From an uncultured virus (IMG/VR IMGVR_UViG_3300010885_058768) (taxonomy: Duplodnaviria > Heunggongvirae > Uroviricota > Caudoviricetes): 64,000 nt of DNA. The notes beneath the pieces are model-generated. The model did not search any database and was not told the origin of the DNA. It saw nothing but the letters and a program-made list of their open reading frames with translations. Positions 2,560 through 25,900 of the stretch are shown in pieces; the stretch's first letter is position 1; each line of letters opens with the position of its first letter. The position numbers were made by a program, and so were the translations under genes. The stretch covers positions 1 through 64,000 of IMG/VR virus record IMGVR_UViG_3300010885_058768. One strand, written 5' to 3'.

Positions 2560-2575
2560 ACAGAAAGAAGCAAAG

Positions 2576-2761
2576 ATGAAAATCTACTCACTAAAAATCA
2601 CACCTGCTAACGCAGACCACGCTTCACCTATTTACGAAGTTCATTCTTGGGAAAAGGTAGAAGAAATCATCAAATCGACAAAAGAACTCTACAACGGAGA
2701 ATTCACTTTTGAAGTCTTCGGTAGAGTAGAAGCTCGAGTAGCGGAAACGGAGACACTATGA
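2576..2761 (+). CDS. Hypothetical protein
   Basis: ORF in operon. Confidence 0.65.
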   Translation: MKIYSLKITPANADHASPIYEVHSWEKVEEIIKSTKELYNGEFTFEVFGRVEARVAETETL

Positions 2762-3281: not shown

Positions 3282-3523
3282 GAACTATCGGTCGTTTCTT
3301 GATTGCGGTAGTCACCGCACCAATCGTACTAATCGCCTACGGACTTCTCTGGGTTCTTTTGATAGGACTCGGAGCAGAGGATAACGGAATGTTCTATTCG
3401 AACCTTCCATTCATTGCAGCCGGCTGGATTACAACGCTAACTGCGTTCCCGTGGCTGATGAGATTAACGGATTCCATCGACAGATGGATGGAAAACCAAG
3501 CACGAACACCATACAAAAAATAA
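3278..3523 (+). CDS. Small membrane protein
   Basis: Two hydrophobic segments. Confidence 0.7.
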   Translation: MRTIGRFLIAVVTAPIVLIAYGLLWVLLIGLGAEDNGMFYSNLPFIAAGWITTLTAFPWLMRLTDSIDRWMENQARTPYKK

Positions 3524-3535
3524 GGAGAGACAAAA

Positions 3536-6249: not shown

Positions 6250-6415
6250 ACTACTTATCGCCCGCTTACGCGAGCTCGTTTGGCCAGCGGTCATTTCCGT
6301 GCTACTAATCGCGGTGTCCTTGGTCATCGTCGTAGTTTCTCCCGGGTTCTCAACTGGGGCAGGAGTCTTTGCCTTGGCTGGAATTGGGTTCGCAATCCTG
6401 GCTCAGAGGGCCTAA
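6242..6415 (+). CDS. Small two-TM membrane protein, 57 aa (not in ORF track)
   Basis: MLKLLIARLRELVWPAVISVLLIAVSLVIVVVSPGFSTGAGVFALAGIGFAILAQRA; AAGGAG RBS. Confidence 0.7.
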   Translation: MLKLLIARLRELVWPAVISVLLIAVSLVIVVVSPGFSTGAGVFALAGIGFAILAQRA

Positions 6416-6419
6416 AAAA

Positions 6420-6512
6420 TAGTTCAAAAATCTTTGCAAATGTGCAGCTTTCTGCTCTAAAACCTGTTATAATAAATAAGTAATAAAAAACGAGTTCCTT
6501 TAGGAGGAAATT
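6420..6512 (+). promoter_or_regulatory. Repeated promoter, copy 6
   Basis: ATCTTTGCAAATGTGCAGCTTT...CCTGTTATAAT; AGGAGG RBS. Confidence 0.85.
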
Positions 6513-8726: not shown

Positions 8727-8840
8727 GAGATTCTTCTATCCCGATTATTATTATACCATACTTTTAGCTAAAAGTTTCTCTATTTATCAAACAGTTATAA
8801 AACTTACTGTTTTTAGTCTACGGTATACAATTGCATCATC

Positions 8841-9419
8841 ATGAATGCGATTACAAAACAAAATCACAAGCTTCCAACGACTGTAGCTTTCGTCTTCAAA
8901 GAAATCGCCACAACGCGAGAGCTAAGAGACAACTACATCTCTGTTCTTAGAGAAAATGAATGGACTTTACAGTCGATTGCAGATTGCTGCGAACTCACTA
9001 GGGAGAGAGTCAGACAGCTTGCTTCTCGGAAATCAGACCCCGGAGTAGTCTCCGAACTCATTCGCCTTGGGGCTGTGATTCCGACTCCACCGGAGAAACC
9101 TAAACGGGAAGTTGCCTTCAAGCCGGAAATAAAACCGGAGACCCTAGAGAAATTGCTAGAACTTCAGCCGCTTGCGCAACAAGTTCGCTCAAATAGCACG
9201 AAGTTCCGGGAAGAAGCTGAAGTCTACACGGCTCTTTTGTTTGACGCGTATAAAAACCAGGGAGTTTCTCTGTATCGGCTTGCAAAACTTCTCGGAGTTA
9301 CTCATGGGGCGATAAGATTTAGGCTGGCGAGATACGGATACATAAAACCTCAAGGCGGAAGCAGCAAAGTTTACGCTCTCGTAAAATCAGAAAACAGGGT
9401 GAAAATCTCAAATGGCTAA
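8841..9419 (+). CDS. Double helix-turn-helix DNA-binding protein
   Basis: WTLQSIADCCELTRERVRQL and VSLYRLAKLLGVTHGAIRFRL; abuts terminase. Confidence 0.8.
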   Translation: MNAITKQNHKLPTTVAFVFKEIATTRELRDNYISVLRENEWTLQSIADCCELTRERVRQLASRKSDPGVVSELIRLGAVIPTPPEKPKREVAFKPEIKPETLEKLLELQPLAQQVRSNSTKFREEAEVYTALLFDAYKNQGVSLYRLAKLLGVTHGAIRFRLARYGYIKPQGGSSKVYALVKSENRVKISNG

Positions 9420-10809
9420 AAGCATTATGGAACAGTTAGCTCTTTTGCCGGAAGCGGAGAGATTAGAGATTCTTGCGGGCATGGACCCTGATACTTTGCT
9501 GTGGGATTGGTCGGTATGGGGAAGACCAGAACAGCAAGCGCCTCAGGGTGAGTGGTCTATTTGGATGTATCTAGCCGGAAGAGGCGCGGGAAAAACGAGA
9601 GCTGCAGCGGAGTGGATTCGTGAAGAAGCAAAGTACACTACAACTGGGCAGAGAAGATTCGCCCTCGTTGCGAGAACTGCAGCAGACGTTAGAGATGTCA
9701 TCGTTGAAGGTGAGTCGGGAATCATTTCCGTTACTCCGCCTTCCGAACGCCCTCTTTACGAGCCTTCGAAACGTCGACTCACTTGGCCAAATGGAAATAC
9801 GGCAACTTGCTTCACAGCTGACGAACCTGATTCACTCCGTGGACCTCAGTTTACTCACGCTTGGGGAGATGAGGTTGCGGCATGGAGGCAAACTCCGGAC
9901 GCTGCCGGGATGACTGCTTTCGACAACTTGCGCGTTGGAACTCGTTTGGGCTCAAATCCAAAAATCATGATAACCACTACACCAAAAAGAGTGCCCTTGC
10001 TCTATCAGCTTTTAGAAGAAGAGAGAAAGACGGGAAGAGTCGTCGTAACTCGTGGGTCGACTTTGGATAACTCAGGGAACTTATCAAGCTCTTACATCGA
10101 TGCTATCACAGGAGTTTACGCTGGTACGAGACTCGCGGCTCAAGAGCTTTACGGTGAAATGTTAGATAACGTTGAAGGCGCTCTGTGGACTGAAGAAATG
10201 ATCGATAAAGGAAGAGAAACTGTCTTTCCAATTGGATCTCCATTGAGAGTAATCGGTGTCGACCCTTCGGTTGCCGAGAACCCTAGAGACGAATGCGGTA
10301 TCGTTGTCGTTGCTTCAACTGCAGAAAGAGATTTATATAAACGACACGCTTGGGTTTTAGAAGACGCAACGATTCTCGGCTCGCCAGAAACTTGGGCGAA
10401 TAAAGTAGTCGCCATGGCTCGTAAATGGGGATGTCCAGTCGTTGCTGAAGTGAATCAGGGAGGCGCATTAGTTAGAAACGCAATTAACGCAATCGACCCT
10501 AACATCAAAGTTTTCGAAGTTCACTCAAAGTACGGGAAAGCTCTTCGCGCAGAACCGGTGACTCTTGCTTACGAACAGAACAGAGTTCATCACGTAAACT
10601 ACTTACCCGAACTTGAATCTCAAATGTATTCTTGGATTCCGGGAGAAGGAAAGTCTCCAGACCGAGTCGATGCTTTAGTTCACGCGCTTACTGCTCTGCT
10701 AATTAAACCACCGCAAGGTTTCGTCGGTGGAAAGATTACCGCAAAGTCAGTTGCTCACAGAAAGTTCGATACGGGAAGAGGCGGCGGAGGAATCTTCAAA
10801 GTTCGCTAA
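9412..10809 (+). CDS. terL: Terminase large subunit
   Basis: Walker A AGRGAGKT, LRGPQF..AWGDE, TTTP, nuclease IGVDP, SPDRVDA. Confidence 0.95.
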   Translation: MAKSIMEQLALLPEAERLEILAGMDPDTLLWDWSVWGRPEQQAPQGEWSIWMYLAGRGAGKTRAAAEWIREEAKYTTTGQRRFALVARTAADVRDVIVEGESGIISVTPPSERPLYEPSKRRLTWPNGNTATCFTADEPDSLRGPQFTHAWGDEVAAWRQTPDAAGMTAFDNLRVGTRLGSNPKIMITTTPKRVPLLYQLLEEERKTGRVVVTRGSTLDNSGNLSSSYIDAITGVYAGTRLAAQELYGEMLDNVEGALWTEEMIDKGRETVFPIGSPLRVIGVDPSVAENPRDECGIVVVASTAERDLYKRHAWVLEDATILGSPETWANKVVAMARKWGCPVVAEVNQGGALVRNAINAIDPNIKVFEVHSKYGKALRAEPVTLAYEQNRVHHVNYLPELESQMYSWIPGEGKSPDRVDALVHALTALLIKPPQGFVGGKITAKSVAHRKFDTGRGGGGIFKVR

Positions 10810-10826
10810 GAGAGATTAAAGAAATC

Positions 10827-10852
10827 GCCCTCTTTCGAGGGCTTTTTCTTTT
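10827..10852. terminator. Terminator between convergent genes
   Basis: GCCCTC-TTTC-GAGGGC then T tract. Confidence 0.8.
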
Positions 10853-10863
10853 TTCTCTTTCGC

Positions 10864-11118
10864 TTACTTATTCGCAGCGATTGCGCATGGGTAAACTTTT
10901 ACGTCTCGAGACCAAATCCACGGGTCGTCGTAACCATTCTCTTCGCTCATGTCTTCGTTGAAGTTTTTCTCTGCGGTCGCTAAGTCAACTTCTTCGTAGT
11001 AGACATCGCTGAACTTTCTAGCTTTTTGCAAGTCGCTGCAACCAACTCTGTGGCAAACATCTGTTCCGTCGATTTCTCTGATAACTGCTACTGCTTTTGT
11101 GTTTTCGTTTACGTTCAT
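10864..11118 (-). CDS. Cassette 1 hypothetical protein (MNVNEN...)
   Basis: Leader GACAAAAGGAAAACAAATG; own promoter. Confidence 0.8.
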   Translation of the reverse strand: MNVNENTKAVAVIREIDGTDVCHRVGCSDLQKARKFSDVYYEEVDLATAEKNFNEDMSEENGYDDPWIWSRDVKVYPCAIAANK

Positions 11119-11230
11119 TTGTTTTCCTTTTGTCATTTTGTTTTTGTTTCTAAGATTATTATACCATACTTTTAGCTAAAATACTGCACATTTGCAAAGA
11201 TTTTTCTATTATTTATCATTTTGTTATAAA
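11119..11230 (-). promoter_or_regulatory. Cassette 1 promoter/leader
   Basis: Minus strand ATCTTTGCAAATGTGCAG...TGGTATAAT. Confidence 0.85.
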
Positions 11231-11367
11231 GCTGTTTTGCGGTAGATTTGCGGTAGTTTCTCTTCGTTCTCTTCAAGCTTTCTCTCAGCTTTTTCTCTTT
11301 TAGAGAAGCTTCTCTTCAAGCTCTCTGCTTCTCTCAGATTTCTCTTTTTCCTTCCTTCAGCTTGAAC

Positions 11368-11440
<73 letters not shown>

Positions 11441-11458
11441 ATTTCTAAGTTTTCGACT

Positions 11459-11752
11459 TTAGATTTCGGAGACTTTCTTTGCGAAGATTTCATACTCTTC
11501 TTTTGAAGTCAAGAATCTCTTTACGCATTCGTTTCCAAGTCTCTTCACTTTAGCGTCTGCTTGCTCTTCTGCGAACGGAACTAAAGAATCTGTTTTCCAA
11601 TTCCAACTAACTAACCAACCAGAATCTTCTGTCATCGCCTTTGCGCAATGTTCGCACCAAGTTTCAAAGTTGTTTTTGTAGTTTCTCTTCATGTTCATTT
11701 CGTACTGAGTGTGAGCTCCGAATCCATAACACTTGATTTCGTTTACGGTCAT
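11459..11752 (-). CDS. Cassette 2 hypothetical protein (MTVNEI...), CxxC
   Basis: Leader ACGACAAAAGGA; CEHCAK..GNEC. Confidence 0.8.
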   Translation of the reverse strand: MTVNEIKCYGFGAHTQYEMNMKRNYKNNFETWCEHCAKAMTEDSGWLVSWNWKTDSLVPFAEEQADAKVKRLGNECVKRFLTSKEEYEIFAKKVSEI

Positions 11753-11868
11753 TTGCTTTTTCCTTTTGTCGTTTTGTTTTTTGTTTCTAAGATTATTATA
11801 ACAGGAACTTAGCAAAATAAACACACTTTAGCAAAGATTTTTAGACAAGTTATCATTTTGTTATAAAG
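11753..11868 (-). promoter_or_regulatory. Cassette 2 promoter/leader
   Basis: Minus strand ATCTTTGCTAAAGTGTG...CCTGTTATAAT. Confidence 0.85.
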
Positions 11869-12055
11869 TTGATTCCGGCTTGAACTACGGTGAAAGTTCG
11901 CACTTCGATGAGAAGTTTTCTACTTTTTCTGAAGTCTTTCGATTTCAAAAAGTTCTAAGTTTTCTGCGAAAGCAAAAAGCTTGAAGAGAGTAGAGTTGAG
12001 ATTTCTCTTTTCTTAGATTTCTGAAGTCTTCAGATTTTTCTTCGTTGAGAGAGTT

Positions 12056-12087
12056 AAAAAGAATCGACCGCATTTCTGTGATCGATT
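12056..12087 (-). terminator. Cassette 3 terminator
   Basis: Plus strand AAAAAG-AATCGACCGCA-TTTC-TGTGATCGATT. Confidence 0.75.
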
Positions 12088-12102
12088 TCTTCTCGCTTTC
12101 GC

Positions 12103-12375
12103 TTATTCCCAAATGCTCGAGAAGTCAGTTCTCTCTTTTTTGTTCGTCAAGACGATTTCTTGTCGAGTGATTGGATTTTTAGCAATGATTCCGTACTTGT
12201 ATTTTGCATCTTCTCCAAAGACTTTGACGTTTGTTTCGATAACTTTGTACTTTGTTGAGAAGTAGAAGACTGTGTCTCCAACTTTCTTTTCTCCAAGTGA
12301 GAACATTGCTCTTGCCAACTTGTTTAATTCTGGATTGCTGTTGTAAAGTACGTTGTCTTTGATTACTTCGTTCAT
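12103..12375 (-). CDS. Cassette 3 hypothetical protein (MNEVIK...)
   Basis: Leader ACGACAAAAGGA. Confidence 0.8.
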   Translation of the reverse strand: MNEVIKDNVLYNSNPELNKLARAMFSLGEKKVGDTVFYFSTKYKVIETNVKVFGEDAKYKYGIIAKNPITRQEIVLTNKKERTDFSSIWE

Positions 12376-12490
12376 TCGCTTTTCCTTTTGTCGTTTATTT
12401 ATTTTTGGTACATAATCATTATAACATGAACTTAGCAAAAATACTGCACATTTAGCAAAGATTTTCTACTTGTTATCATTTTGTTATAAT
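12376..12490 (-). promoter_or_regulatory. Cassette 3 promoter/leader
   Basis: Minus strand ATCTTTGCTAAATGTGCAG...TGTTATAAT. Confidence 0.85.
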
Positions 12491-12529
12491 CACTATTCCG
12501 GCTTGAACTACGGTGAAAGTTTGCGGTAA

Positions 12530-13350
12530 AAGCTCACACTCTCTGAAGTTTCTGAAGTTTCTGAAGTTTCTGAAGTCTTCAGATTTCGCTTTCACTTTTG
12601 AGCTCTCTGTCGAAAGCAAAGTTGCGATTTTGAGTTCTCTGTCGAAAGCTGAGATTTTGTTTAGAGCTCTCAATCGAAAGCTGAGATTCATTTTTCTCTC
12701 TCTGTCGATTTCTTAGTTTCGATTTAGATCTCTTTATCAAAAGTAGAGATTCGATTTCTGAAGTCTTTAGAGTTCTTTAGATTTCTTTCGATTTCTTAGA
12801 AGTTTCTAAAGTCTTCAGATTTTCGATTTTGTTTTTAGATTTCTCTTTCGATTTCTGAAGTCTTTAGATTCTTTAGATTCTTTAGAAGATTTTCTAAGTT
12901 TTCTAAAGTTTTCTGAAGTTTCTAAAGTTCTCTGAAGTTTTTCTTTCGCTACTAAAGTTCTCTGAAGTTTCTAAAGTTCTCTAAAGTCTTTCGATTTCTT
13001 AGAAGTTTCTAAAGTCTTTCGATTTCTCTTTCGATTTCTGAAGTCTTTCGATTTCTGCTTTTCTCTTTTGACTTCTCTTTTGATTTCTGAAGTTTTTAGA
13101 TTTCTTCAAAGTCTCTGAAGTCTTTAGATTCGTTTAGTTGATTGCGGTAAATGATTGCGGTGAATTCGAACTCTCTTCAAAGTTTCTGAAGTCTTTCGAT
13201 TTCTGAAGTCTTCAGATTTTTGATTTTAGTTTTTCGATTTCTGAAGTCTTCAGATTTCTTTCGCAACTTTAGATTTCTTTAGATTTCTTTCGCAACTTTA
13301 GATTTCTTTCGCAACTTTAGATTTCTGTTTTTCTTTTTCTCTTTCTCTTT
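12530..13350. repeat. Degenerate tandem and palindromic repeat tract
   Basis: Units TCTGAAGTT, TCTAAAGT, TTTAGATTT, TTTCGATTT; palindrome TCTGAAGTCTTCAGA; CTTTCGCAACTTTAGATTT x3. Confidence 0.9.
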
Positions 13351-13356
13351 AGAGTT

Positions 13357-13387
13357 AAGAAAGAAGCGACCGTTTTTCAACGATCGC
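13357..13387 (-). terminator. Cassette 4 terminator
   Basis: Plus strand AAGAAAGAA-GCGACCGTT-TTTC-AACGATCGC. Confidence 0.75.
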
Positions 13388-13411
13388 AACTTTTGTTGAG
13401 TGATTTCTTAC

Positions 13412-13657
13412 TTACACAACGTAAGCAAGAACGTATCCACCATTCAATTTCTCTTGAACTTTTTCTTGAGCGATTGAAAGTGCACTTTGGTTTGAGTAAG
13501 CGTTTACAACTTTGTTCTGTCTCTGTGATTTCTCTGCCATTCCCCAAGACATTGAAACTTTATTATCAACAACGATTACTTCATAGATTTTCTTCTTGCC
13601 ATTTAGTCCACGGTTTCCGTCACTGACCTTTAGTAGACACCATTTCTTTTCGTTCAT
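13412..13657 (-). CDS. Cassette 4 stand-alone WGR-like domain protein
   Basis: KKIYEV..V...WGM...Q.K....A...A......K...GY pattern. Confidence 0.65.
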   Translation of the reverse strand: MNEKKWCLLKVSDGNRGLNGKKKIYEVIVVDNKVSMSWGMAEKSQRQNKVVNAYSNQSALSIAQEKVQEKLNGGYVLAYVV

Positions 13658-13778
13658 TTTTTTCCTTTTGTCGTTTTGTCGTTTATTTATTTTTGGTACA
13701 TAATCATTATACACTATTTTTAGCAAAATAGCTGCACTTTAGCAAAGATTTTTGCTAAGTTATCACTTTGTTATAAAG
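13658..13778 (-). promoter_or_regulatory. Cassette 4 promoter/leader
   Basis: Minus strand ATCTTTGCTAAAGTGCAGC...GTGTATAAT; leader ACGACAAAAGGA. Confidence 0.85.
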
Positions 13779-13959
13779 AGTTATTTTGCGGTGATTTGCG
13801 GTGATTTCTTGATTTTTCTCGTATTTTTGAACAAATGTTCAGGTCGCTAAGATTCATTATAATCAACTGTCTTTTGTTCTTGACTTTGATTTCTCTTTGT
13901 CATTTTGTGGAGCAATTCTGGGCGACATGACAAAAGGGCACAAAAAGCTACAATGAGCG

Positions 13960-14400
13960 CAAAGTCTCTTCTTTTCTCAATTTCTCACTTTCTTCGCACT
14001 CTCTCACTCTCACTCACTTTCGTCGACTTTCTCTTCTTTTCTCTCGCTCTCGCTTTCTCTCACTCTCTCACTCTCACTTTCTCTCGCTATTTTTCTCTCG
14101 CTCTCGCTCTCGCTCTCTTCTTCTCTCACTTTGGCTCACACAAAAGCTCACGCAAAAGCGAAAGACTTTTCGACTTCTCGCTCTCTTCTTCTCTCACTCT
14201 AAGCGCTTTCATGAGCTTCTTTTTTCTTTAGAGAGTCTCGGCTGTGTGGAGTGAGCGCAGTTATAAAAATGTTATCATTAGAGTTGTGTGGAGTGAGAGA
14301 AGTCGTGTGATTGTGTGGTGTGGAGTGTAATGAGAAAGTTATAATTGGTCGGTTTGGTGATTCGGGTCTCTGTTTGGGTCGGTTTGGTGATTCGGTGGAG
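13960..14400. repeat. CT-rich then GT-rich low-complexity tract with short direct repeats
   Basis: CTCTCA/CTCTCG iterations; TGTGGAGTG x3; GGTCGGTTTGGTGATTCGG at 14347 and 14377. Confidence 0.85.
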
Positions 14401-14539
14401 ACGTTTTCAAGAAGCTCACACACTAACCGCAACCCTCTCTTTCACCAAAGACACCTAACCTTACTGTACTGCTTCCTCTCCTCTGTACACAACCTCTCCG
14501 CCGTAGTCAGTTGTACACTCGCATGATACAGTATCTCGC

Positions 14540-15040
14540 ATGGAAGATAAGGCGAGAGTCGCGGCGCGAGGTCAGGCGCTCCCTCCCTCGGAGGCGAGCC
14601 TGCTCGCCGGTCTGCAACCGCGAGCCGTAAGGCAGCGCTGCGCGGACCTCTATAAGGCTGGGTGGACGCTTGACGCGATAGGCAACGCGCTCGTTCCGCC
14701 GCGTGGTCGCTCCACCGTTCGGTCGTGGGTCGCAAAGAGCACCTCAACACTCAAGGAGACACTTCCTCCTCTTCCTCTACCAACTGCCCGTCCGGCTCAT
14801 AAAAGTGCACCCACGACCCATCCAGGTATCCCCGAGGCCACGGTCTCCCGAATACGAGAACTGGCTCCGCTTGCCCGGCATTACCGTTCTAGAACGGCGT
14901 CCACCTCAACGGCGGCCCGCGCGAACACTGAGCTAACCGCTCTCTGTCTTAGTTTACACGCCAGCGGCGTGACCACCGCTGAACTAGCCCGTGCCGCGGG
15001 AGTGACGTACCGTGCAATGGCACGCCGTCTTGGAAGATAA
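14540..15040 (+). CDS. Double-HTH protein, paralogue of 8841..9419
   Basis: GWTLDAIG..., LAPLAR.YRS, GVTTAELARAAGVTYRAMARRL. Confidence 0.75.
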   Translation: MEDKARVAARGQALPPSEASLLAGLQPRAVRQRCADLYKAGWTLDAIGNALVPPRGRSTVRSWVAKSTSTLKETLPPLPLPTARPAHKSAPTTHPGIPEATVSRIRELAPLARHYRSRTASTSTAARANTELTALCLSLHASGVTTAELARAAGVTYRAMARRLGR

Positions 15041-15055
15041 AGGAGAAAATAAAGG

Positions 15056-15433
15056 GTGAGAATTCTACAGGACACCTTTCCAGCGCTGGTCTCAGTTGCT
15101 GGAAGTCCACCGCCCGCTGGGGAGACAATTCCTCCCGGCTCAAGAAAGTATCGCGCCAAGGTTGTTGACCGCGCGAGAGTTATCGTCACCGCGGACCGAG
15201 TTATCATTGCCGTTGACGGCACCAGCGACGAAGGTCCGCTTATCGTCTTTAGTCAGCCGTACTCTGCCGGGAACTTTGTCAAGGCAGGCAACGCGGATAA
15301 CGCGTCAACGGTTATCACCGACAACGGAGCGTACGTCTCCTTCTCGCGAGGACAGGACTGCGCCTGCGGCTCACGTCTTCGCGGCTGGAACCCGTTTAGA
15401 GCCATAAGCTCAAGCAGAGACCCACAGGTGTAG
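15056..15433 (+). CDS. Hypothetical phage protein
   Basis: ORF with RBS; CACGSRLRGWNP. Confidence 0.75.
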   Translation: MRILQDTFPALVSVAGSPPPAGETIPPGSRKYRAKVVDRARVIVTADRVIIAVDGTSDEGPLIVFSQPYSAGNFVKAGNADNASTVITDNGAYVSFSRGQDCACGSRLRGWNPFRAISSSRDPQV

Positions 15434-15434
15434 A

Positions 15435-15725
15435 GTGCAGGACCTAGTAGAACTAATAGTCTTAGCCCTCGCTGTTTTTCGCGTGACCCGGCTCGTCACC
15501 ACGGACTATATAACTGAGCCAATTCGAAACTTTATCTGGAAACGCTTCCCGCCGGAGTCCACGAAAACAGGTTATCTATTCACCTGCGACTGGTGCACGT
15601 CAATCTGGGTTTCGTCACTGTTTGCGATTCCTTATACGATAGTTCCAACGGAGACCGTGGCGGTTTCGCTCATACCAGCGTTGTCTGCAGTCGCCTCCAT
15701 AATAGCCGCGCGAGTTGATAGATGA
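15435..15725 (+). CDS. DUF1360-like membrane protein
   Basis: LAVFRVTRLVTTDYITEPIR...LFTCDWCTSIW. Confidence 0.8.
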   Translation: MQDLVELIVLALAVFRVTRLVTTDYITEPIRNFIWKRFPPESTKTGYLFTCDWCTSIWVSSLFAIPYTIVPTETVAVSLIPALSAVASIIAARVDR

Positions 15726-15764
15726 TGTCGACCGTTCCGCAATCTAAAGACGAGGAGTTAACCA

Positions 15765-17498
15765 TTGGGTGTATTTAGCCGAGAGCCACAGCCGCTTCGT
15801 GCAAGTGGCGCGACAGGCCGCATAGCTCCTCCGTCTATCCTGTCTACCACCTTTGGCAATGGATACCAAAGTCTTCCGTACTCAGCTCCTCGAGGTCTAA
15901 CTGCCGCTGCCGCGCAGATAAGACTAAACGATAAGGGAGAGGCCGAGCAGTTCAAGGCTCGTCGCGCAACCGCGGTATCCGCCTGGCAAAACGAGGCGTG
16001 GGAATACTACGACGCAATCGGTGAAATCAAGTACGCCTTTAATCTAGTTTCCTCCGTCGTAAGCCGCATTCGTCTATACGTGGCCGTTGTCGAAAACCCG
16101 GCCCAGACTCCAGTTGCAGTTAGAAGTGCCGCCAGCGTTGACGGTCGACTAGCCGGAGCCGCCGAGCGCGCGCTTGACCGTCTGAACTCAGCGTATGGAG
16201 GACAGGCAGGTCTTCTCAGAGACGCGGCACTAAACCTGTCCGTCACTGGAGAGTGCTATCTTGTTCAAATTCCAGAGCGCCTAGGTTCCGGTATCCCTGA
16301 GAGCTGGGACATCCGCTCAACCGACGAGCTCCTAATCGACTCAAGAGGAAACTACGCGATCGCGCCAAGACGCGACCTCACCGTAGCTACCGGAGGCGGA
16401 GATAAGAAGGGGATTATCCAGCTGCCGACCAACGCATTTGTTGGCAGAATCTGGCGTGCACATCCGCGCTACTCAGAGGAGGCCGACAGTTCTCTACGCG
16501 GTCTGCTAGACATGTGTGCCGAACTACTACTTCTAAACCGCACCTTCCGTGCAACGGCGCGTTCCCGTCTGAACGCTGGTGCGCTCTATCTCCCAGACGG
16601 CCTAAGCGTCGCGGCTGGACCAGACCCTAACTATCCTTACGATGACCCGGACGGTCTGACCGACGCTCCGACTCCTGAGGAGATGCAGGACGAGTTCGAG
16701 GACCAACTTGTTGACGCGATGACCACTCCTATTAGAGATGAAGATTCTGCCTCAGCGGTTGTTCCACTTATTATTCGTGGTCCTGCGGAACTTGGCGACA
16801 AGATTAAGCAGTTTAAATTTGAACGCTCATTTGACCCGGCGTTGGCAGAGCGCTCAGACCGCGTTCTTGAGAGAATCCTTCAGGGACTAGACGTTCCAAA
16901 GGACGTGGTCACTGGACTTGCCAACGTAAAGTATTCAAACGCGCTGCAGATTGATGAGGCACTTTACAAGGCACACATCGAACCGATGATGCTGCTTATC
17001 GCGGATGCCATTACCGTTGTCTATCTTCGTCCTTATCTTATTGCAAATGGATTTGACGCGGTTGACGTCAATAGACTGGTTATCTGGTATGACCCGTCTC
17101 TAGTCGCAACCCGCAACGACCGCGCGATGGACGCGGACGCAGGATTCGACCGCATGGCAGTTTCATTCGAAACATGGAGACGCGCGCACGGATTCTCAGA
17201 CGCAGACGCTCCAAGTCCAACTGAGCTTGGTCTACGTCTACTTGTCGAGAAGGGCGCGATTACTCCTGAGCTAAGCGAGGCCCTGCTGAACGCGGTCGCA
17301 CCTGACATCATGAAGGCTGCCCGTGATGCCTCACAGGCAACGAGCGTTGCGCCAATTCCAGACATGGTAAACCAGATGCTTAGCGGACAGGCTCCAGCAG
17401 CACCAGCAGCTCCAGCAGCAGAGCCAATCGCGCCAGCAGACGCAGCGCCGCCTCCACCCGAGGAAGCTCCACCAGGATTAGCAGAACCAATAGTATAG
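15765..17498 (+). CDS. Portal protein
   Basis: Size and position; WQNEAWEYYDAIGE, NLSVTGECYL, RIWRAHP pattern of actinophage portals. Confidence 0.8.
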   Translation: MGVFSREPQPLRASGATGRIAPPSILSTTFGNGYQSLPYSAPRGLTAAAAQIRLNDKGEAEQFKARRATAVSAWQNEAWEYYDAIGEIKYAFNLVSSVVSRIRLYVAVVENPAQTPVAVRSAASVDGRLAGAAERALDRLNSAYGGQAGLLRDAALNLSVTGECYLVQIPERLGSGIPESWDIRSTDELLIDSRGNYAIAPRRDLTVATGGGDKKGIIQLPTNAFVGRIWRAHPRYSEEADSSLRGLLDMCAELLLLNRTFRATARSRLNAGALYLPDGLSVAAGPDPNYPYDDPDGLTDAPTPEEMQDEFEDQLVDAMTTPIRDEDSASAVVPLIIRGPAELGDKIKQFKFERSFDPALAERSDRVLERILQGLDVPKDVVTGLANVKYSNALQIDEALYKAHIEPMMLLIADAITVVYLRPYLIANGFDAVDVNRLVIWYDPSLVATRNDRAMDADAGFDRMAVSFETWRRAHGFSDADAPSPTELGLRLLVEKGAITPELSEALLNAVAPDIMKAARDASQATSVAPIPDMVNQMLSGQAPAAPAAPAAEPIAPADAAPPPPEEAPPGLAEPIV

Positions 17499-17512
17499 GA
17501 AAAGGAACATAA

Positions 17513-19924
17513 ATGCTTGACATTCTCCCGGACGACCCGCTGGGTAGGGAAGAGCTTGCCGACGCGCTAGCCGAGACCTTATCTAACGTAGTTGTCTTTC
17601 AATACATGGCTCACGGTTTCCACTGGAACGTAAAGGGTCCGCACTTTGCTCAGTTCCACGAGTTCTTTGGAGAAATCTACGAGGACGCTCAAGGTTCAGA
17701 GGACGACCTAGCCGAAAACATTAGAAGAATCGGATACGACGCTCCGTCTGCGTTGCCACAGTTCATGGCACTATCAAACGTTCAATACGTTGAGTGTTCA
17801 AGTGACCCGCTAGAGATGAGCCAGGTTCTACTGGAGGCCAACTCAGTTGTAATCGACTCGCTAAATGGTACGTTCACAATCGCCAACGCGATAAATGAAC
17901 AAGGAGTTGCAAACCTAATCGCCGAGCGCATCGACATGCACAAGAAATGGCAGTGGCAGCTAATCTCTACGCTAGGTCTTGACGAAAAGTCAATGGGAAA
18001 ATCTAAGGCTGAATCTCCTTTAGAAGTATCGGACCACGATTACTCGTTGTTCGAAACGGACGTTCAGCCAGAAGAAGTTTTTGTTCCAACAACGGCTGCG
18101 GTTGGAAAAATAGTCTCAGAGGAGCAGGACCTAGCACAGGCTCTTCTTGACATCGCAAATAAGTATGGAAAGTTTAACGAAGACGATACCGGTATCTGGG
18201 CTGGGTACACTCCAGCGGCAGAAAACGAAGTTGCAGCCATTGGCGTCAAGTGCAGCAACTGCGTTCTTTATCGTGGCGGCTCAGAATGTGCAATCATCTC
18301 TGCTGAAGTAGAGCCTGAAGGCAAGTGCCGCTTTGCGGTAATTCCAGATGGCGTAGTTAGTTTAGACGAAAATCCTATAGAGAAGATGTTTTCTAAGCCA
18401 CCTTACCTAGCTCAGGACGAGCTAAAGCAAAAGGTAGAAGACCTAGACGACTACGAGGAAGAATACCTAAACATCTCTGATTTGATTCCAACTCAGACTC
18501 ATCTAGACCCAAGTAAGTTTAAGGACGCTCGCTCAATCACGAAGCCGGTAATCGTTTACGAAGACGCCGACGGATATAAGTTAGTTGACGGACATCATAG
18601 ATGCGCTTCTAAGGCCATCGCAGGTGAAACTAAGATTATGGCAAGGGTCTACAGAGGTTTAGTAGCGGCAGCTTCATTGTTTACCGCGATACCAATAAGT
18701 CCTGACGACATAGAGCTTTCAGCCGATGGCCCTTGCTGGGACGGCTATGAGCAAATCGGCATGAAGATGAAGAACGGCAAGAAGGTTCCTAACTGCGTTC
18801 CGATAAACGCCGCCGCGACTGAGTTCGCTGCAACTGAAGATTCCTGTCCACCTGCCACTAGAGACATCGTTCTAAACGTCACCAACAGACAGAACGCCAT
18901 CGACAACGTTGGCTACGGACCACTAAACCCACTCGAGCCAAACGACGAGTTCTGGCAGGAGAAGGCAGACCGCTGGAAGACAACCCCAGAAGAGTCAAAG
19001 AAAAGCATTTGCGGAAACTGTGTATTCTTCGTGAGAACACCGAGCATGCTTAATTGCATTGAAGGCGGACTTGCCGAGGGTGGCTCAGGAGAACAAAACG
19101 CCTGGGACGCAATCGACAAAGCAGAGCTAGGCTACTGCGAAGCGCTTGACTTCAAGTGCGCTGCGTCTAGAACATGCAACGCGTGGGCAGCTGGTGGACC
19201 AATCACCGAGGAAAAGAGCTCTACTGAGACGTCAGACGACACCGTCAGCTACTCACCTGCCGACGCTCGCAACGCAGTCTACGCGTCTGGTTCTAAGCCT
19301 GCGCCAAAGAAGGACCGCATAAAAGGTTCTAAGAAAAACGCCCCAGGCTCTGCTAAGAACAAGAAAAAGGTAATAACCTTTTCAAAGGAAGTAGAGGCCT
19401 CTCTTCGCAAGAAGGTCACAGACCACAACGCTAAAGCGAAGACCGAGGGTCGTCAGGCAACATTGCCAATGCTAAAGGCCGTTTACCGCCGAGGAGCCGG
19501 AGCGTACTCAAGTTCTCATAGACCAAACATCTCTCGCGCAGCCTGGGCAATGGCAAGAGTAAACGCTTTCCTACACCTGCTCAAGACAGGTAAGCCTGCT
19601 AGCGTGAAGTACACCCAAGACAACGATCTACTTCCAGCTAAGCATCCAAAAGCTCCAGGCGCGATTACCGCAAGTATTTTTAGCGAGCTTGCCGTTGAGC
19701 TTAAGGAAGAAAATGAATACGCGTCTCCAGAACATGCTATATTTGCACTAGCAGAGTTCTCGGGAATGGGTTACGAGATTATTCCTGCACTTCGCGCAAG
19801 CTGGGCAAGAGCTGTTAAAAACGACGAAACACCTTACAAACGAGCAATGAACCTTGCCACAAAGTTGTACAATAGTAATGACGCTGACCTGCTACCAGCA
19901 GATAAGAAAGGCACCTTAGAGTGA
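17513..19924 (+). CDS. Multidomain head-region protein: Dps/ferritin + Cys-rich modules + ParB/Srx-like domain
   Basis: AHGFHWNVKGPHFAQFHEFFGEIY (Dps); CSNC..C..C; LIPTQ...LVDGHHR; CGNC; VYRRGAGAY...WAMARVNAF. Confidence 0.8.
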   Translation: MLDILPDDPLGREELADALAETLSNVVVFQYMAHGFHWNVKGPHFAQFHEFFGEIYEDAQGSEDDLAENIRRIGYDAPSALPQFMALSNVQYVECSSDPLEMSQVLLEANSVVIDSLNGTFTIANAINEQGVANLIAERIDMHKKWQWQLISTLGLDEKSMGKSKAESPLEVSDHDYSLFETDVQPEEVFVPTTAAVGKIVSEEQDLAQALLDIANKYGKFNEDDTGIWAGYTPAAENEVAAIGVKCSNCVLYRGGSECAIISAEVEPEGKCRFAVIPDGVVSLDENPIEKMFSKPPYLAQDELKQKVEDLDDYEEEYLNISDLIPTQTHLDPSKFKDARSITKPVIVYEDADGYKLVDGHHRCASKAIAGETKIMARVYRGLVAAASLFTAIPISPDDIELSADGPCWDGYEQIGMKMKNGKKVPNCVPINAAATEFAATEDSCPPATRDIVLNVTNRQNAIDNVGYGPLNPLEPNDEFWQEKADRWKTTPEESKKSICGNCVFFVRTPSMLNCIEGGLAEGGSGEQNAWDAIDKAELGYCEALDFKCAASRTCNAWAAGGPITEEKSSTETSDDTVSYSPADARNAVYASGSKPAPKKDRIKGSKKNAPGSAKNKKKVITFSKEVEASLRKKVTDHNAKAKTEGRQATLPMLKAVYRRGAGAYSSSHRPNISRAAWAMARVNAFLHLLKTGKPASVKYTQDNDLLPAKHPKAPGAITASIFSELAVELKEENEYASPEHAIFALAEFSGMGYEIIPALRASWARAVKNDETPYKRAMNLATKLYNSNDADLLPADKKGTLE

Positions 19925-22900
19925 GCATCCAAAACATAGTCCTACCTCTGTCTCTTCGACTTCGCATTGCCGAAATCGTATCCGAAAAGAACAACTCGGT
20001 ACTTGCGGCTCGTCAGGTTCCGTTGACCGCTGCCTACGTGGTTGCCAGACGTGCAATCGCCCTGACGGCAAGCCTCGACCCTTCAGTTGAAGGCTACGTG
20101 GCAATCAAGGCAGTCACCGCCTTTACCACGCTTGCGATCGACGGTAGGACGTCCCTTACCGCAAGCAGCGGGTTAGACATCTACCGCGACGTGCTTCCAA
20201 TTGGTCACCCTGAGTTTTCAAACGCGGCCGTCTTGCCAATTAAGACGCTTAGAGCTGCCCGCGCAGAATGGCTAGCCGCAGACCCACGAATCGCCGACGA
20301 GTACCGTCCGCTAGTTGCCTCTGCGTTTGGAGCGACTCCTGGCTCGCTTGAACAGCGCCACGCCCGTGCGCGTTTAGACCGCGTCGACTCTCACAGCGTG
20401 CCGCTCGACATCGTACTTGCTCCACTAATTGCCGCTGCTAGAAAAATTGACATCGCAGCTCTAAAGGCTCGTGTTGCTGACCAGCTCCGCGACCCACACA
20501 CTGGACAGTGGATTGAGGAAGGCCACTTTGCGATGTTTGACCTAAAGGGTCCTAGCGGAAAGATTCGCAAGGTGTTCGGTCAACTTGTTGGTGGTAACGA
20601 CATGCTCGGCTACGGTGAGATTCACGTGACCGATGACCCAGACCTCGGCACCGGTGTAGTCAAGGTAAACAAGGCTAACATTACAGCTGTAGGCGGTATG
20701 CTTACAGACGAAAACCTAGAAAAAGCAGGCGTTGACCCACAGGGCAAGCAGAGAGTTTACCTAAACACTGATGCACAGAGTCTAAACGACCTAGCTAAGA
20801 CCATGGACGTCGCGCCTAGTGACTGGACCTGGGATGCAAACGAAGACAACTCAAACGGCAGCAAGGGAGCGTTTATCTCTGCCGACGGTTTCAAGGCCGT
20901 TCCTGTTGGCGAAGGCGGACAGAACGCCAAGACCTTCGACATCTTTGACGCAGATGACAAGCCGATTGAAACTCTGCAGGGTGAAGGTTGGGGAAACATC
21001 CAGGGCGGTCTACAAAAGATTCGCCAGGACATGGCAAAGAAGGTGGACGCAGGTAAGCCTGCAACCGAGAGCACCGGTACCGCGCAGATGATTCCTGCTG
21101 GAAAGCTCCAGGCTGGAGACAAGGTTGACGTGGCAGGCAAAGAGAACACCGTTGTCTCAGTTAGCAAGCCGTATAAATACAAGGTAAAGCCTACTGACCT
21201 AAAGCAGACCAAGTCTGGCTATAGAAACGTGGTAGACGTCACCCTTGAAGACGAGAACGGCGAGCGCGTCACTAAGCGCTGGAACCCTGCGACTGAAATC
21301 CAGGCTATTCGTCCAGAAGGCAAGGAAGAAGCTCCAGCAGTCGAAGGAGAAGTAGAACACGGTCTATCCGATACTTGGACCAGCGTAATGAACGGCGCGT
21401 TAGGCAAGCGCGAGCAGCAGCTGCGCGACCTTGAAAAGTCATTCCCGCCAGACGCCGCGGCAACCGCTGAAATGAACGAGTTAGCAGCGGCTAGAGCAAG
21501 AATCAAATCAGGAGTGGTCACCGAGGCAGACCTTGAAAAGGTCAAAGAACTTCTCAGTCAGGAGGACGGCGCCGATAGCCTGTTTACAAAGCCAGGTTCA
21601 ACGATATCCCAAATCGACAAGCTTCTAAAATACAAGTTTGGTAAAGACGGTGCTCCTAGGAGCATGAGCCAAGAGTCCGATGACGCCGGTAAAACTCCTA
21701 TCGAACCTGGCCAGAAGGTTAAGGGAGGCGTTTCTGACCTTCTCGACGACTACGATAAAGAATTACAGAAGAGCGGCTTCGACGTAGGAATGCGCGACGG
21801 CACCTGGACATCAGCAGATGGCCGTTTGGAACTCTCTTACGAGGATGACGCATGGAACGTCAAGTTCGATGGAGAACTAGCGGCTAAGGTCACCATATGG
21901 GAAGAAGACGAGAACGGTAAGTATTACGAACCCGACGACGACAGCATCTATGAGTCAATTTTCGACAGTCTTTATGGCGAACTAACAAAGGACTTTACCA
22001 AGGAAGACTACGTCGACGACATGGTCAGCAGCGGCCAAAGATCGATCCAAGAAATAAAGGACCTTGGAAAACTTCCTGACGAATCTGATGAAGACTTTGG
22101 TGCAAGAATCAAGAAACTAGAAGACGGCCTATCATCTTTAGAAAGCTACATACGCTCAGATGACTTTAAGTACCTTCCAGATTCAATGAGAACAGAAGCC
22201 TATGGCACCTACACTCCGGGTACCAAAGCCTCTCCTATGGAACAAAAGCTAAACTCGCTATTAGAGTCTGCAAGACACGCTGGTTATAAGTCTCGTGAAC
22301 TGTATTTGAAAGATCTCTTCGCTAAGAAGAAGGCCGAAATAGACGAAGCTAGTAAAGCTACAGGACCTTCACCTGATGCTGCCGCTGAAGGCAAGGTGAA
22401 GGCCAAGAACAAGGCCGAGGCAAAAGGCAAGATGGCCGAGCCTGCCACGGACGCGCAAAAAAACTACGTAAAGGCAATGCTGAAGAACCCAGCAGTTCCA
22501 GACGATGTTCGCTCTAGAATTCAGGCTGACCTCGATGAGCAAGGCGACGCGATAAACAAGAACGACATCGGTCTTCACATCGCTGAGCTAAAGAACTACC
22601 CGAGCAAGAGTCTGCCGACAGACAAGATGTATAACTCGATACAGCGTGAGCTCTACGCCCGCGGAGCCTCTCCTGAAGAAGTCGATAAGATTCTTGCTGA
22701 CCTGCCTAACATGGACAAGAAGCAGGCCTCAGACCTAATCGGTTCGCTGAAGGAGAAACCAGACCTTGCCGGCGAAGAGGCAACTAAAAACGGATTTGAA
22801 GAAACCACCAATGAGTCTGATAAGTACGATGGTCAGCGCCGCTGGACGAAGGTTGAAGCAGGTAAGCGAACTACAGTTCTGCTAAACGGTGATGGCTGGA

Positions 22901-25900
22901 GAGTTAATCACCAAAGCAACGTAGACCCAGCAACTGGAACCTGGAACGACTCGCAAATGCAGTCGATAGACCACGACTCAGAAAAGAGTTCCAGCGCCGA
23001 CGACGTGTTTAAGAACGCGGCTGACACCCACGAAACTCTCGGAGCCAAGGAAGAGCTTCCAATCGACGAGAGTGCTGTTGCCGCTGACGTAGCCGCAGAA
23101 GTTAAGGAGCTTAGCGACAAGCAAAAAGAGCCTGCCACCGATAAGCAGCGCGCGTTTGTTGATAGTCTTCTTGCCAACCCAAAGGTTCCAGCCGACGTAA
23201 AGAGTGACATCGAGTCTAAACTTGCCGCAAAGCCAGACATGAACAAGGCAGAGATTGGCGAGATTATTGGTGCCCTAAAGAAGCTCCCTGGCTCAGACGC
23301 ACCTACCAGTAAGATGCTCAACTCAGTAAAGCGCGAGCTCATCGCACGTGGCGTTCCAGTCAACGAGGCGAATGAGACTAGAGCTAACCTAGACGGCATG
23401 AGCAAGAGCGAGGTCTCAGACCTAATCAGCAAGCTAAAGAGTAAGGACGATGCCGCAGGAGCTCAAGCAGCGGCTAACGGCTTTGTTGAGGCCACCACTC
23501 CAGAGGACCAGGCAGGCGGAGTTCGCAGGTTCAACCTACTTGGAAGTGACGATGAGCTTCTAGCTGCACTTACGCTAGACGGCGAAGGCTTCACCGTGAA
23601 CCGCAAGGATGAGAACGGCGAGGACGACGAGTTGTTCCTTGGTCGCAACCTAGGTAGCTTTGAGAGAATCGCAAACGCGGCTAAGGCTGCGCAGGACCTA
23701 AAGAACACAGACGTCACTAAGACTCCTGGATTCGACAGTGAGTCAGACAGAGAAAAGAAGATTGCTACGGCTACGTACAACAGACCTGGAGACAGTGGCA
23801 CCTGGATGGAGGGCAAGACTCCAGATGGACAGCGCGGTTGGTCGTACTACGATGCCGATGGAAATGTTACTGAGGTAACTGAAAATCCCGATGGCTCATT
23901 TACTAGACGCAGCAGCGACGCCCCTGAGCCTGTCACCTTTGATAGCGTAGACGAGGCGTTCTCGCTTGACAGTAAGCCAAGCGACACTGGCAGTAAGATG
24001 TCAGACTTCCAGGACGACTTTGACGACATAATCGAGGCGGTTCAAGGACTAGACTTGTCAGGAGACGATGAGTCAAGCGACGACACTCCTGCGTCAGACC
24101 TAAAGAACTACGTGTCTAATCAAGTTACGCAAGCGGAAGAGCTCATCAAGAAAGGTGACCTTCTCTCCGCGCAGGCCTCGCTGGCCCTTGCCGCGGCTGA
24201 CGCAAACGATTCAGACGTCCCTGGAGCAGATGAGCTAGGAGACGCGCTGAACAACGCAGCTAAGTCGATAGCTGACATTAGAGAAGCGCAAAAGGCACTT
24301 GGCCAAGGTAGTGGCGGCGGAGATGAGCCTCCAAGCACTAACGCTCCTTCGTCTGCAGGCGACGACGACTTTGAAAACAACGTACGTGACGTCTCTGGCG
24401 ACATCATGAGCATAGGCGAGGAACTAGACAAGAACCTCAAGAGCTCTGCGATAAACGCCATAGAAGAGCGCGAGGTTGCAGACGGTAGAACTATTCTAAA
24501 GAACGCAGAAGACTCAATGGGTCAGGCGCAGGAGGCACTTGCCGCTGGAGACACTGAGACTGCAAGAAAGCTTATCGACCAGGCAGCTAGTCAACTAGCC
24601 GACGCGTCAGACGTCTTCGAAAACATCTTGGACCAGTCCGATGAAGGCAAGGCGGTAAGAAAGCTTGGAAAGAGTGCCGGTGACCTCGCTCTTAAGATAA
24701 GAGAAACTCTTCTTGATGGACAACCGCGAGGCGGAGGATCTGCCGGTGACAGAATCTTTGGCAAGGCTGGAATCTCCGATGACAGAATCATGCAGGCCAT
24801 GGAGGACGTTGACGACTGGGTGGCATCCGAGAAAGGCAACGAGGTTTCTGGATGGGATAACAAGGTAGGCAACCTAGACCAGATGATTTCTAGTTTCAAC
24901 GACGAGCCAGAGGCGCGCATGCAGAAGACCGCAGAGGCTCTGTACGAGCTAGGTCGTGAACTTGAAGACAATGGCTACAAGGATTCTGCGAACACCTTGT
25001 TCGACATGTCCAAGGCACTTTCAGACGAGTTCTACGGTGACTCTGACGAAGACGAAGACGAGACCTCCACTTCAGGCACTGCAGAGTACGCGCCGGCGAC
25101 AGACTGGACTCCTGCTGAGAACGGGTTTAACTTTACTGGCGGAGATGAGCCGGGAGAGGTCTCAGCAGCCTTAGCTAAAAAGAAGAAAAAGGTAGAAGAC
25201 CTTATCGCAGATGGCGACTACGGAGGCGCGCTAGACGAGCTCTTCGACGGAGCGGCGAGCATTCCAATGAGCCGCGCCATGGAAGACGACCTCTCTGGAT
25301 CGTACGACGGCATTCAAGATGGAGACGTCTTCTACCAAAACGCCGATACCATAGTCTATAAAACCAAGGATGGTCGCTGGAGAGTCTACTCTAAAGACGA
25401 GACGGACGGGTTTATCGACACCGGAGAGCCTGCCACTGACCAACTAGCCGACGAGCTTCTTAAGGAGATGATGGCGCCAAAGAGTGATTGGACACAGGCA
25501 AGATTCTATGACCCTCGCCTAAATGACTTGTTCCACGCCAACAACGCGCCTGGCCCGAGCGGAAACCCAGCTAACCACACGAGTACTCCTAACTACAAGA
25601 TTAGCTTCGACGGTCTTCGCATGCCAGACGACTGGGCAGGTGACCTTGGTCTTCCTGAAAAGGGCGAGGAAGAAGAACCTTACTCTGACGGTGAACTAAT
25701 CGACACCTGGCTAAAAAATAACGGTCTAGATGAGCTTGGCGTAAAGTGGGACCCAAGCTCAACAGAGACTACGTTTGGCGGAGCAAACGTCAACTTTGAG
25801 ATTCCTGAAGGTGCCAAGGACAAGTTTGGCGAGGCCTACTATGGAGAAGGTGCCACCTGGAAGGACCTCGAAGACGACGAGATTCCAGAGGCCATCGAAG

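Follow-up and report, generated by a model that had tools for sequence, protein, structure and literature searches.

Four non-coding spacers in the genome of an uncultured phage are almost free of the dinucleotides CC and GG, and this gap most likely reflects the building and copying of repeat arrays, not an escape from nucleases. The spacers lie within the first 64 kb (64,000 nucleotides, nt) of the 77,288-nt IMG/VR virus record IMGVR_UViG_3300010885_058768, a stretch that we call the window and to whose positions all coordinates refer unless another record is named. They belong to a block of small genes between the gene for the large terminase subunit and the genes for a helix-turn-helix (HTH) protein and the portal protein. 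We give an even chance to a more specific explanation, in which the gap follows from a closed repeat vocabulary whose unit variants are exchanged for one another, with the palindromic units serving as putative operators.

The first-pass annotation of this DNA had noted by eye that CC is absent from 11895-12060, 12530-13365 and 13950-14240, that GG is confined there to GCGGT motifs and a single TTGG, and that both steps are plentiful in the rest of the window. A count of CC-free runs over the whole record confirms the first of these statements: the runs in the region measure 872 nt (12499-13370), 763 nt (13665-14427), 193 nt (11876-12068) and 186 nt (11165-11350), and the longest run outside it 233 nt. 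GG-free runs reach 621 nt (12526-13146), 330 nt (13160-13489), 284 nt (11890-12173) and 196 nt (13938-14133), compared with at most 140 nt outside 10.8-14.6 kb. Within the three intervals GG is indeed found only at 13146 and 13159, in GCGGT motifs, and at 14133, in TTGG; an additional GCGGT copy contributes a GG at 12525, immediately before the second interval. The rest of the window contains 2699 CC and 3394 GG. The CC- and GG-free stretches are real.

When the spacers are pooled (1599 nt: S1, 11259-11419; S2, 11895-12060; S3, 12526-13365; and 13809-14240, i.e. 13809-13949 together with S4b), 3 CC are observed where 69.3 are expected and 9 GG where 34.2 are expected, and six of these nine GG are located in 13809-13949, a non-repetitive part. 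The steps CG (51 observed, 48.7 expected) and GC (47 observed, 48.7 expected) are normal. The observed/expected (O/E) ratios in the spacers are 0.04 for CC and 0.26 for GG, 1.70 for TC, 1.54 for CT, 2.35 for AG and 2.24 for GA, and AC, CA, GT and TG are not enriched. Outside the block the ratios are 0.75 for CC and 0.86 for GG, and no comparable depletion was found elsewhere in a near-identical record of 121 kb (G001). The arrays recur in contigs from four runs, each of a different study, and in two IMG/VR records, so that an artefact of assembly in a single sample can be dismissed.

The spacers are written in very few words. A 15-nt near-palindrome, TCTRAAGTCTTYAGA (TCTRAAG-T-CTTYAGA), has 14 plus-strand sites, against 0.06 expected by chance in 64 kb; eight are exact, six have a single mismatch, and all fall between 11928 and 13254. 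It is a head-to-head pair of the half-sites TCTRAAG and CTTYAGA, and S3 holds 36 such half-sites in both orientations, mostly spaced by 8, 9 or 10 nt and accompanied by TTTCGA units; the three or more copies that characterise an iteron or operator array are thus present. Among the 79 IMG/VR stretches that hold the palindrome, only the near-identical record of this phage has four exact copies. S4b is written differently: 13 of the 15 CTCTCRCT copies of the record are found there, each C is followed by T (65 cases), A (19) or G (16) and never by C, and the pyrimidine-rich strand includes 74 purines in 291 nt. The units of the adjoining region S5 are, by eye, the reverse complement of those of S4b. 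Overall, short pyrimidine and purine blocks alternate, and C and G always stand single.

The comparison of strains reveals how these arrays change. The block is covered by contigs of four runs, three of which are identical to the window over the covered parts, and the fourth, X5, holds a variant that differs by about 2-3%, with an 879-nt contig over 12386-13261 carrying 26 substitutions and two 1-nt insertions or deletions. For X5, 40 of 51 differences were listed, and the following counts for S3 rest on the 23 listed in that array. Sixteen of the 23 recreate a 9-mer that is present elsewhere in S3, where random changes of matching types would give 2.8; TCTGAAG, for example, is replaced by TCTAAAG, and TTTCGAT by TTTTGAT or TTTAGAT. 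None of the eight gains of C makes a CC (chance 0.028), about 48% of the T in S3 having a C as neighbour, and one of the three gains of G makes a GG. The length of the array is kept, with two 1-nt insertions or deletions in 876 nt at a divergence of about 3%, which is similar in the flanks. The arrays change inside a closed vocabulary, mostly by the exchange of existing unit variants. In runs X2 and X3, contigs bridge 14014-14176 in S4b with 29 other letters between, which points to a shorter variant of the array or to a repeat that collapsed in assembly.

The same differences bear on the second suggestion of the first-pass annotation, a localised CC-context mutagenesis, for which it proposed a look at mutation spectra across strains. 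A deaminase, ultraviolet (UV) light or oxidation could have erased CC and GG in this way, and would be expected to leave a one-directional spectrum. The 23 differences are instead balanced, with C or G lost in 12 cases (6 C>T, 5 G>A, 1 C>A) and gained in 11 (5 T>C, 3 A>C, 3 A>G). Mutagenesis would agree with the AT-richness of the block (10864-14240; GC content 0.34-0.37, against 0.43-0.55 in its surroundings), with the enrichment of CT and AG, and with a pyrimidine-dimer glycosylase gene in the genome, which suggests exposure to UV. However, TC and GA are enriched like CT and AG, where a loss of TC would be expected from UV and from TC-type deaminases, and the increase in AC, CA, GT and TG predicted for oxidation of GG is not seen; this dinucleotide pattern led us to reject UV and oxidation as causes. 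Moreover, the open reading frames (ORFs) of the block retain CC and GG, and hypermutation does not make ordered palindromic repeat units. We regard this explanation as hardly credible.

Another check proposed at first pass, the collapsing of repeat units, was carried out in three ways, and the depletion persists in all of them. When distinct 6-nt contexts are counted once, CC is found in 3 of 139 (28.9 expected) and GG in 8 of 124 (18.1 expected). In a Lempel-Ziv parse, in which each copied stretch is one event (167 factors in 1461 nt), a new C adjoins a C in 2 of 44 cases (16.7 expected) and a new G adjoins a G in 1 of 31 (8.2 expected). Finally, variants of 11-nt contexts with C in place of T are known for 16 of 233 T without a C neighbour and for none of the 240 T beside a C. 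The depletion is local, strong and goes beyond the copying of units, and therefore some constraint acts on the spacers.

To this extent the first-pass reading is supported; the agents named in it are not. Avoidance of a CC/GG-recognising nuclease of the host or a competitor, of a CRISPR protospacer-adjacent motif (PAM) or of a modifying enzyme would account for a strong local depletion on both strands, and the same genome does avoid a short word, GATC (35 observed against 227 expected outside the block). Yet the phage carries the 2699 CC and 3394 GG counted above in the rest of the window, CCGG (O/E 1.09) and GGCC (0.75) are ordinary outside the block, the genes, promoters and terminators between the spacers hold CC and GG, and GG-rich arrays occupy the same place in relatives. 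Such avoidance is very unlikely to explain the gap. As to other words outside the block, the ratio is 0.15 for GATC, 0.27 for ATAT and 0.49 for TTAA; inside the block GATC occurs at 11436, 12080, 12727 and 13382, three of the four being in terminator hairpins.

The block consists of four minus-strand units, or cassettes, between the terminase and the HTH/portal genes. Read along the minus strand, each unit has the order array, oriented T(G/A)CGGT motifs, a promoter/operator of about 110 nt, ribosome-binding site, small ORF and hairpin terminator, and the depleted spacers span from a terminator to the next T(G/A)CGGT motif. The motif T(G/A)CGGT(A/G), with one or two copies per unit, occurs nine times in the 3.6-kb block, always on the plus strand, against 22 times in the other 73.7 kb. 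The four upstream modules are alignable (alignment A1) with a mean column identity of 74%, the inverted repeats, TATAAT and AAAGGAAAA-ATG being kept. The hairpins of units 2-4 have predicted energies of -13.6 to -17.2 kcal/mol and U-rich tails, and unit 1 uses a two-way hairpin in common with the terminase gene. The features are, from left to right:

9412-10809, plus strand: gene for the large terminase subunit, which borders the variable interval on the left (matches to PHROG terminase large subunit families with E 7e-24 to 4e-21).
10827-10842, both strands: two-way hairpin terminator of the terminase gene and cassette 1 (terminator-like site on both strands).
10864-11118, minus strand: small ORF of cassette 1, start set at MNVNEN from the conserved ribosome-binding site (ORF list; conserved AAAGGAAAA-N-ATG in alignment A1; no Pfam or PHROG family).
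11119-11258, minus strand: upstream module of cassette 1 with a TTGCGGTAG pair (11238, 11249), inverted-repeat element, TATAAT and ribosome-binding site (alignment A1, motif census).
11259-11419, no strand: spacer S1, CT-rich, with (CT)16.5 at 11374-11406 (sequence; CC 3 observed, 16.2 expected).
11420-11440, minus strand: hairpin terminator of cassette 2 (pattern scan; RNA fold -13.6 kcal/mol, z -2.2, U-rich tail).
11459-11752, minus strand: small ORF of cassette 2, 97 amino acids (aa) (ORF list, alignment A1; no family, no Atlas match).
11753-11892, minus strand: upstream module of cassette 2 with a ACTACGGTGAAAG motif at 11886 (alignment A1, motif census).
11895-12060, no strand: spacer S2 with TCTRAAG-type units (CC 0 observed, 3.2 expected; GG 0 observed, 6.2 expected; palindrome sites at 11928 and 12020).
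12060-12085, minus strand: hairpin terminator of cassette 3 (RNA fold -15.3 kcal/mol, z -3.3; missed by the pattern scan).
12103-12375, minus strand: small ORF of cassette 3, 90 aa (ORF list, alignment A1; no family).
12376-12530, minus strand: upstream module of cassette 3 with ACTACGGTGAAAG and TTGCGGTAA motifs at 12509 and 12522 (alignment A1, motif census).
12526-13365, no strand: spacer S3, the long array of 840 nt (CC 0 observed, 22.0 expected; GG 2 observed, 20.7 expected; half-site census; 12 of the 14 near-palindrome sites).
13366-13387, minus strand: hairpin terminator of cassette 4 (pattern scan; RNA fold -17.2 kcal/mol, z -5.4).
13412-13657, minus strand: small ORF of cassette 4, 81 aa (weak WGR match below the cut-off).
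13658-13808, minus strand: upstream module of cassette 4 with a TTGCGGTGA pair at 13787 and 13797 (alignment A1, motif census).
13950-14240, no strand: spacer S4b, a C-rich CTCTCRCT array, i.e. degenerate (CT)n (CC 0 observed, 34.4 expected; 13 of the 15 CTCTCRCT of the genome).
14241-14420, no strand: region S5, G/T-rich, with a plus-strand TTATAAT (sequence; CC 0 observed, 1.4 expected; GG 15 observed, 22.8 expected).
14540-15040, plus strand: gene for a conserved HTH protein, which borders the variable interval on the right (HTH_23 and HTH_38 matched weakly; follows the interval in relatives).

The HTH/portal operon probably has its divergent promoter region in S5. The cassette ORFs (81-97 aa) match no Pfam or PHROG family above the cut-off; ORF 4 has weak matches to WGR (17.6 bits, cut-off 22) and to phrog_16731 (E 5e-4). 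In an Atlas structure search ORF 2 found no match and ORF 3 only weak small-barrel look-alikes (TM score 0.42-0.47, feature hits below 0.9); the sole relative of ORF 3 in IMG/VR is in the near-identical record. Other phages have a homologue of ORF 4 (55% identical), which lies there in compact clusters devoid of arrays. Reading the arrays themselves as coding was considered and rejected: the ORFs 12476-12691 (minus), 12513-12716 (plus) and 13905-14231 (plus) are of low complexity, match no family and have by eye no ribosome-binding site. Within S3, neither a promoter nor a gene follows the pair of TTGCGGT motifs at 13143-13162, which may be the remnant of a cassette that lost its gene. A paralogue of the HTH gene lies just 5' of the terminase gene (8841-9419; a tblastn search with one of the two finds both, and this upstream copy has a Sigma70_r4 match of E 1.5e-6), and a role as small terminase or as regulator is conceivable for either. 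Partial copies of the cassette promoter elements are located at 2163-2193 (minus), 6413-6447 (minus) and 8747-8773 (plus) of the window and at 73667-73692 (minus) of the record, mostly oriented for plus-strand genes. Since such copies exist elsewhere in the genome, the promoter type of the AT-rich block is the phage's own.

The terminase-to-HTH interval is a variable insertion hot spot. In 40 distinct relatives it ranges from 42 nt to 3.9 kb and contains low-complexity arrays in 12; in a wider set of 154 loci, arrays are found in 36 and form 15 array families. In the Microbacterium phage Pumpernickel the terminase and HTH genes are adjacent. The cassettes in the interval of the relatives (loci L009-L090) lie on either strand, and motifs similar to T(G/A)CGGT often stand beside the arrays. 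The array units differ from relative to relative: CACGCA in the Actinomycetia phage DSL-LC01, AGCTC and GATCATT in L028 and L032, GGGCWRRG in L017, CAGGCT in L022, and GTGTTTGAT and GGGTCTGGG in L072 and L066.

The arrays might alternatively be neutral, low-complexity DNA made by slippage, and the missing CC and GG a founder effect of a few seed motifs. In favour of this explanation, the arrays are optional, their vocabulary differs between lineages, and with about ten motif families as the sole independent units the absence of CC would, by our own rough and uncomputed estimate, become only modestly significant. On the other hand, the collapsed tests are still significant, fourteen near-palindromic sites with a fixed inner spacing are unlike direct-repeat slippage, and the 840-nt array keeps its length between strains about 3% apart. 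Phage genomes, moreover, seldom retain 1.5 kb of useless DNA. We consider a purely neutral origin to be unlikely.

The first-pass annotation had asked for the same test in relatives and had named the absence of depletion from homologous regions as a refutation. For GG the outcome is negative: the arrays of L017 (159 observed, 139 expected) and L022 (53 observed, 37 expected) are rich in it, and by that measure the CC/GG rule is not conserved. For CC the expectation holds in most arrays, counted on the terminase strand: 19 observed against 91 expected in DSL-LC01, 2 against 17 in L017, 0 against 18 in L022, 0 against 11 and 2 against 25 in L028, and 0 against 31 in L032; the arrays of L058 (31 and 31) and L250 (6 and 5) are not depleted. 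Low CC on the terminase strand across the family is an unexplained tendency, not a rule.

The relatives are also the testing ground for the possibility that CC and GG steps themselves are selected against, whatever the units, either as the physical requirement of a protein that coats or wraps the DNA or through a directional process on one strand. This hypothesis is supported by the Lempel-Ziv counts in the spacers given above and by those in nine hand-delimited arrays of relatives (summed rows), in which a new C adjoins a C in 26 cases where 57.6 are expected, the other bases being nearer to expectation (G 52 and 53.1, A 38 and 53.8, T 73 and 82.7). The background ratio of CC outside the arrays is 0.63-1.09. 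However, automatic borders in 14 other array families, a set that includes the collagen-like coding array L054, weaken both the effect and its specificity (C 53 observed, 82.3 expected; G 82 observed, 101.3 expected), two arrays, those of L058 and L250, are undepleted, several of the array families are related to each other and not independent, and the GGG-rich arrays of relatives demonstrate that GG is not generally excluded. Direct selection on the steps is possible but doubtful. Somewhat less probable still is a rule on the DNA itself that forbids neighbouring G:C pairs of the same orientation, leaves CG and GC free and reflects a CC-sensitive, directional one-strand process across most of the related arrays. 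Candidate agents would be a single-strand nuclease or deaminase that acts while the DNA is packaged, ejected or replicated, or else the requirements of a DNA-coating protein. If such a rule were imposed directly, on one strand and throughout the family, it would represent an unknown strand-specific pressure on phage DNA.

Three further observations concern the promoters and repeats of the relatives. In L017 (11200-11300) and L022 (11780-11860 and 12660-12720), minus-strand cassette promoters show by eye a TTGACA/TTGACT box and a TAGTGT/TAGTCT/TAATGT box that are 17 nt apart, with ACCG(C/T)AT located in this spacer; the conserved T(G/A)CGGT may therefore be part of a promoter or an overlapping operator. 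L022 contains at 12840-12930 six tandem copies of a 15-nt unit, TTAGGGCTTATGCGG, with a TGCGG motif. Upstream of the HTH/portal operon, exact matches to TWAGGTWAGSCTWACCTWA, which we take to be the DtxR/IdeR-type iron-box consensus, occur in L028 (11316-11334 and 11401-11419), L032 (13382-13400) and L253 (9382-9400); in the window there is none, even with 3 mismatches.

The explanation that we favour, i.e. array building and copying within a closed vocabulary, may be put together as follows. Four tandem units separated by non-coding arrays form a block inserted at the terminase-to-HTH hot spot. Their arrays are built from few words, namely TCTRAAG and its complement, TTTCGA and degenerate (CT)n, in which each C stands single among T and each G single among A. 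Existing unit variants mainly replace one another, possibly by slippage or gene conversion between units, by selection on binding sites, or by both. Because replacement is unit for unit, new CC or GG steps would not accumulate, and their lack would be a property of the closed repeat grammar. The palindromic units could be operators for a dimeric DNA-binding protein, which may coat the DNA between the strong promoters and so insulate or time them. The arrays are probably protein-binding arrays.

Several points weigh against this explanation. No binding protein for the arrays has been identified, the cassette ORFs matching no family, and nothing links either of the nearby HTH proteins (8841-9419 and 14540-15040) to the array units. 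Long-range helical phasing is not significant, with a 9.75-nt peak of power 0.8, whereas shuffles reach a maximum of 0.7 on average and of 1.8 at most; TTT periodicity in S3 and S4b does not exceed that of shuffles. The arrays are dispensable for the family, since 28 of the 40 distinct intervals have none. Since the depletion survives collapsing, inheritance from founder units is not the whole story, and a direct constraint on the CC and GG steps is not separable from a closed vocabulary on the collapsed tests. The X5 contigs, finally, were assembled from k-mers of one run, and repeats can be mis-joined in such assemblies.

If the arrays are operator fields of a phage regulator, they would represent a so far undescribed organisation of early-type cassettes in a large and abundant family of uncultured freshwater actinophages. 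They would also mark a hot spot of cassette exchange, and the CC/GG gap would be a useful signature for finding such arrays, not the sign of an arms race.

The source of the window is an uncultured freshwater actinobacterial phage (actinophage). The near-identical 121-kb record has a CheckV completeness of 90%, the gene set is that of a tailed phage (tape measure, portal, major head protein, terminase), and further genes encode WhiB, PolA, a thymidylate-synthase-like protein, dCMP deaminase and the pyrimidine-dimer glycosylase. The closest named relatives of the portal protein are those of the metagenome-assembled phage DSL-LC01 (76% identity) and of the Microbacterium phages Pumpernickel and A3Wally. 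IMG/VR contains 450 relatives of the terminase, and the runs that hold the stretch are labelled "freshwater metagenome" or "metagenome". No RNA dataset is among these listed runs. Among 50,697 phage records no nucleotide match was found (distant-mode blastn with 11000-14500, megablast with 14500-24500). An Rfam scan of 10500-15000 gave a single sub-threshold match, to nqrA-II (24.4 bits against a gathering score of 55), which we read as chance, and there are no tRNA genes in the window. A limited literature search found no published account of these arrays; the paper found for DSL-LC01 (PMC10611076) contains neither the word "repeat" nor the word "intergenic".

Elsewhere in the genome, a nucleotide-metabolism cluster (kinase-like, thymidylate-synthase family, dCMP deaminase) is located at 61065-63611 of the window, with the pyrimidine-dimer DNA glycosylase and the WhiB regulator beyond it (73736-74275 and 74759-75268 of the record). 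A single ORF of 4391 aa occupies 19921-33096, 3' of the portal region, and the 803-aa protein after the portal has an N-terminal ferritin-like domain (E 4.6e-17). Collagen-like repeats, plus-strand runs of ACCTTG-type triplets, are found at both ends of the 121-kb record (G001 1-3525 and 118700-121045; loci L180 and L182).

With regard to known systems, the cassettes can be compared with host-takeover or early-gene modules in large lytic phages, for instance the terminal-repeat module of SPO1. Like such modules, the block has tandem small ORFs of unknown function, each with a strong sigma-70-like promoter and a terminator, in all four modules as read from sequence. In contrast to them, it has long repeat arrays between the units and a position between terminase and portal that is not a known terminal repeat. 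The depletion resembles restriction-site avoidance in that a short word is strongly under-represented, GATC being an ordinary example in the same genome (O/E 0.15), but it differs in that a dinucleotide is affected, in about 1.5 kb of non-coding DNA only, and not in the other 73 kb. It shares with CC-context hypermutation of the APOBEC3G type the loss of CC and GG, the gain of CT and AG and the shift towards AT, whereas the equal enrichment of TC and GA, the balanced changes between strains and the order of the sequence in repeats are unlike it.

Two further parallels are found among repeats. As in microsatellites and cryptically simple sequence, whose tandem units measure 1-6 nt, S1 holds the (CT)16.5 tract, which would also qualify as an uninterrupted homopyrimidine mirror repeat of the H-DNA-forming kind, and S4b consists of degenerate CTCTCRCT; S2 and S3, with units of 9-10 nt, do not qualify as microsatellites, and their purine and pyrimidine blocks alternate. 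Unlike microsatellites, S4b never has C after C (65 T, 19 A, 16 G), and array length is stable between strains. Iterons and operator arrays, such as the origin iterons of plasmids and phages and the centromere repeats of the ParR type, likewise consist of dense non-coding half-sites, direct and inverted, 8-10 nt apart and beside promoters. In contrast to iteron arrays, no cognate binding, replication or partition gene was found adjacent to the phage arrays (Pfam, PHROG), which reach up to 840 nt, use several unrelated vocabularies per locus, are not significantly phased and follow terminators. As the protein partner that would define them is missing, the arrays are not assigned to a defined family, and on present analysis they would appear to resemble iteron or operator fields and, in part, degenerate microsatellites.

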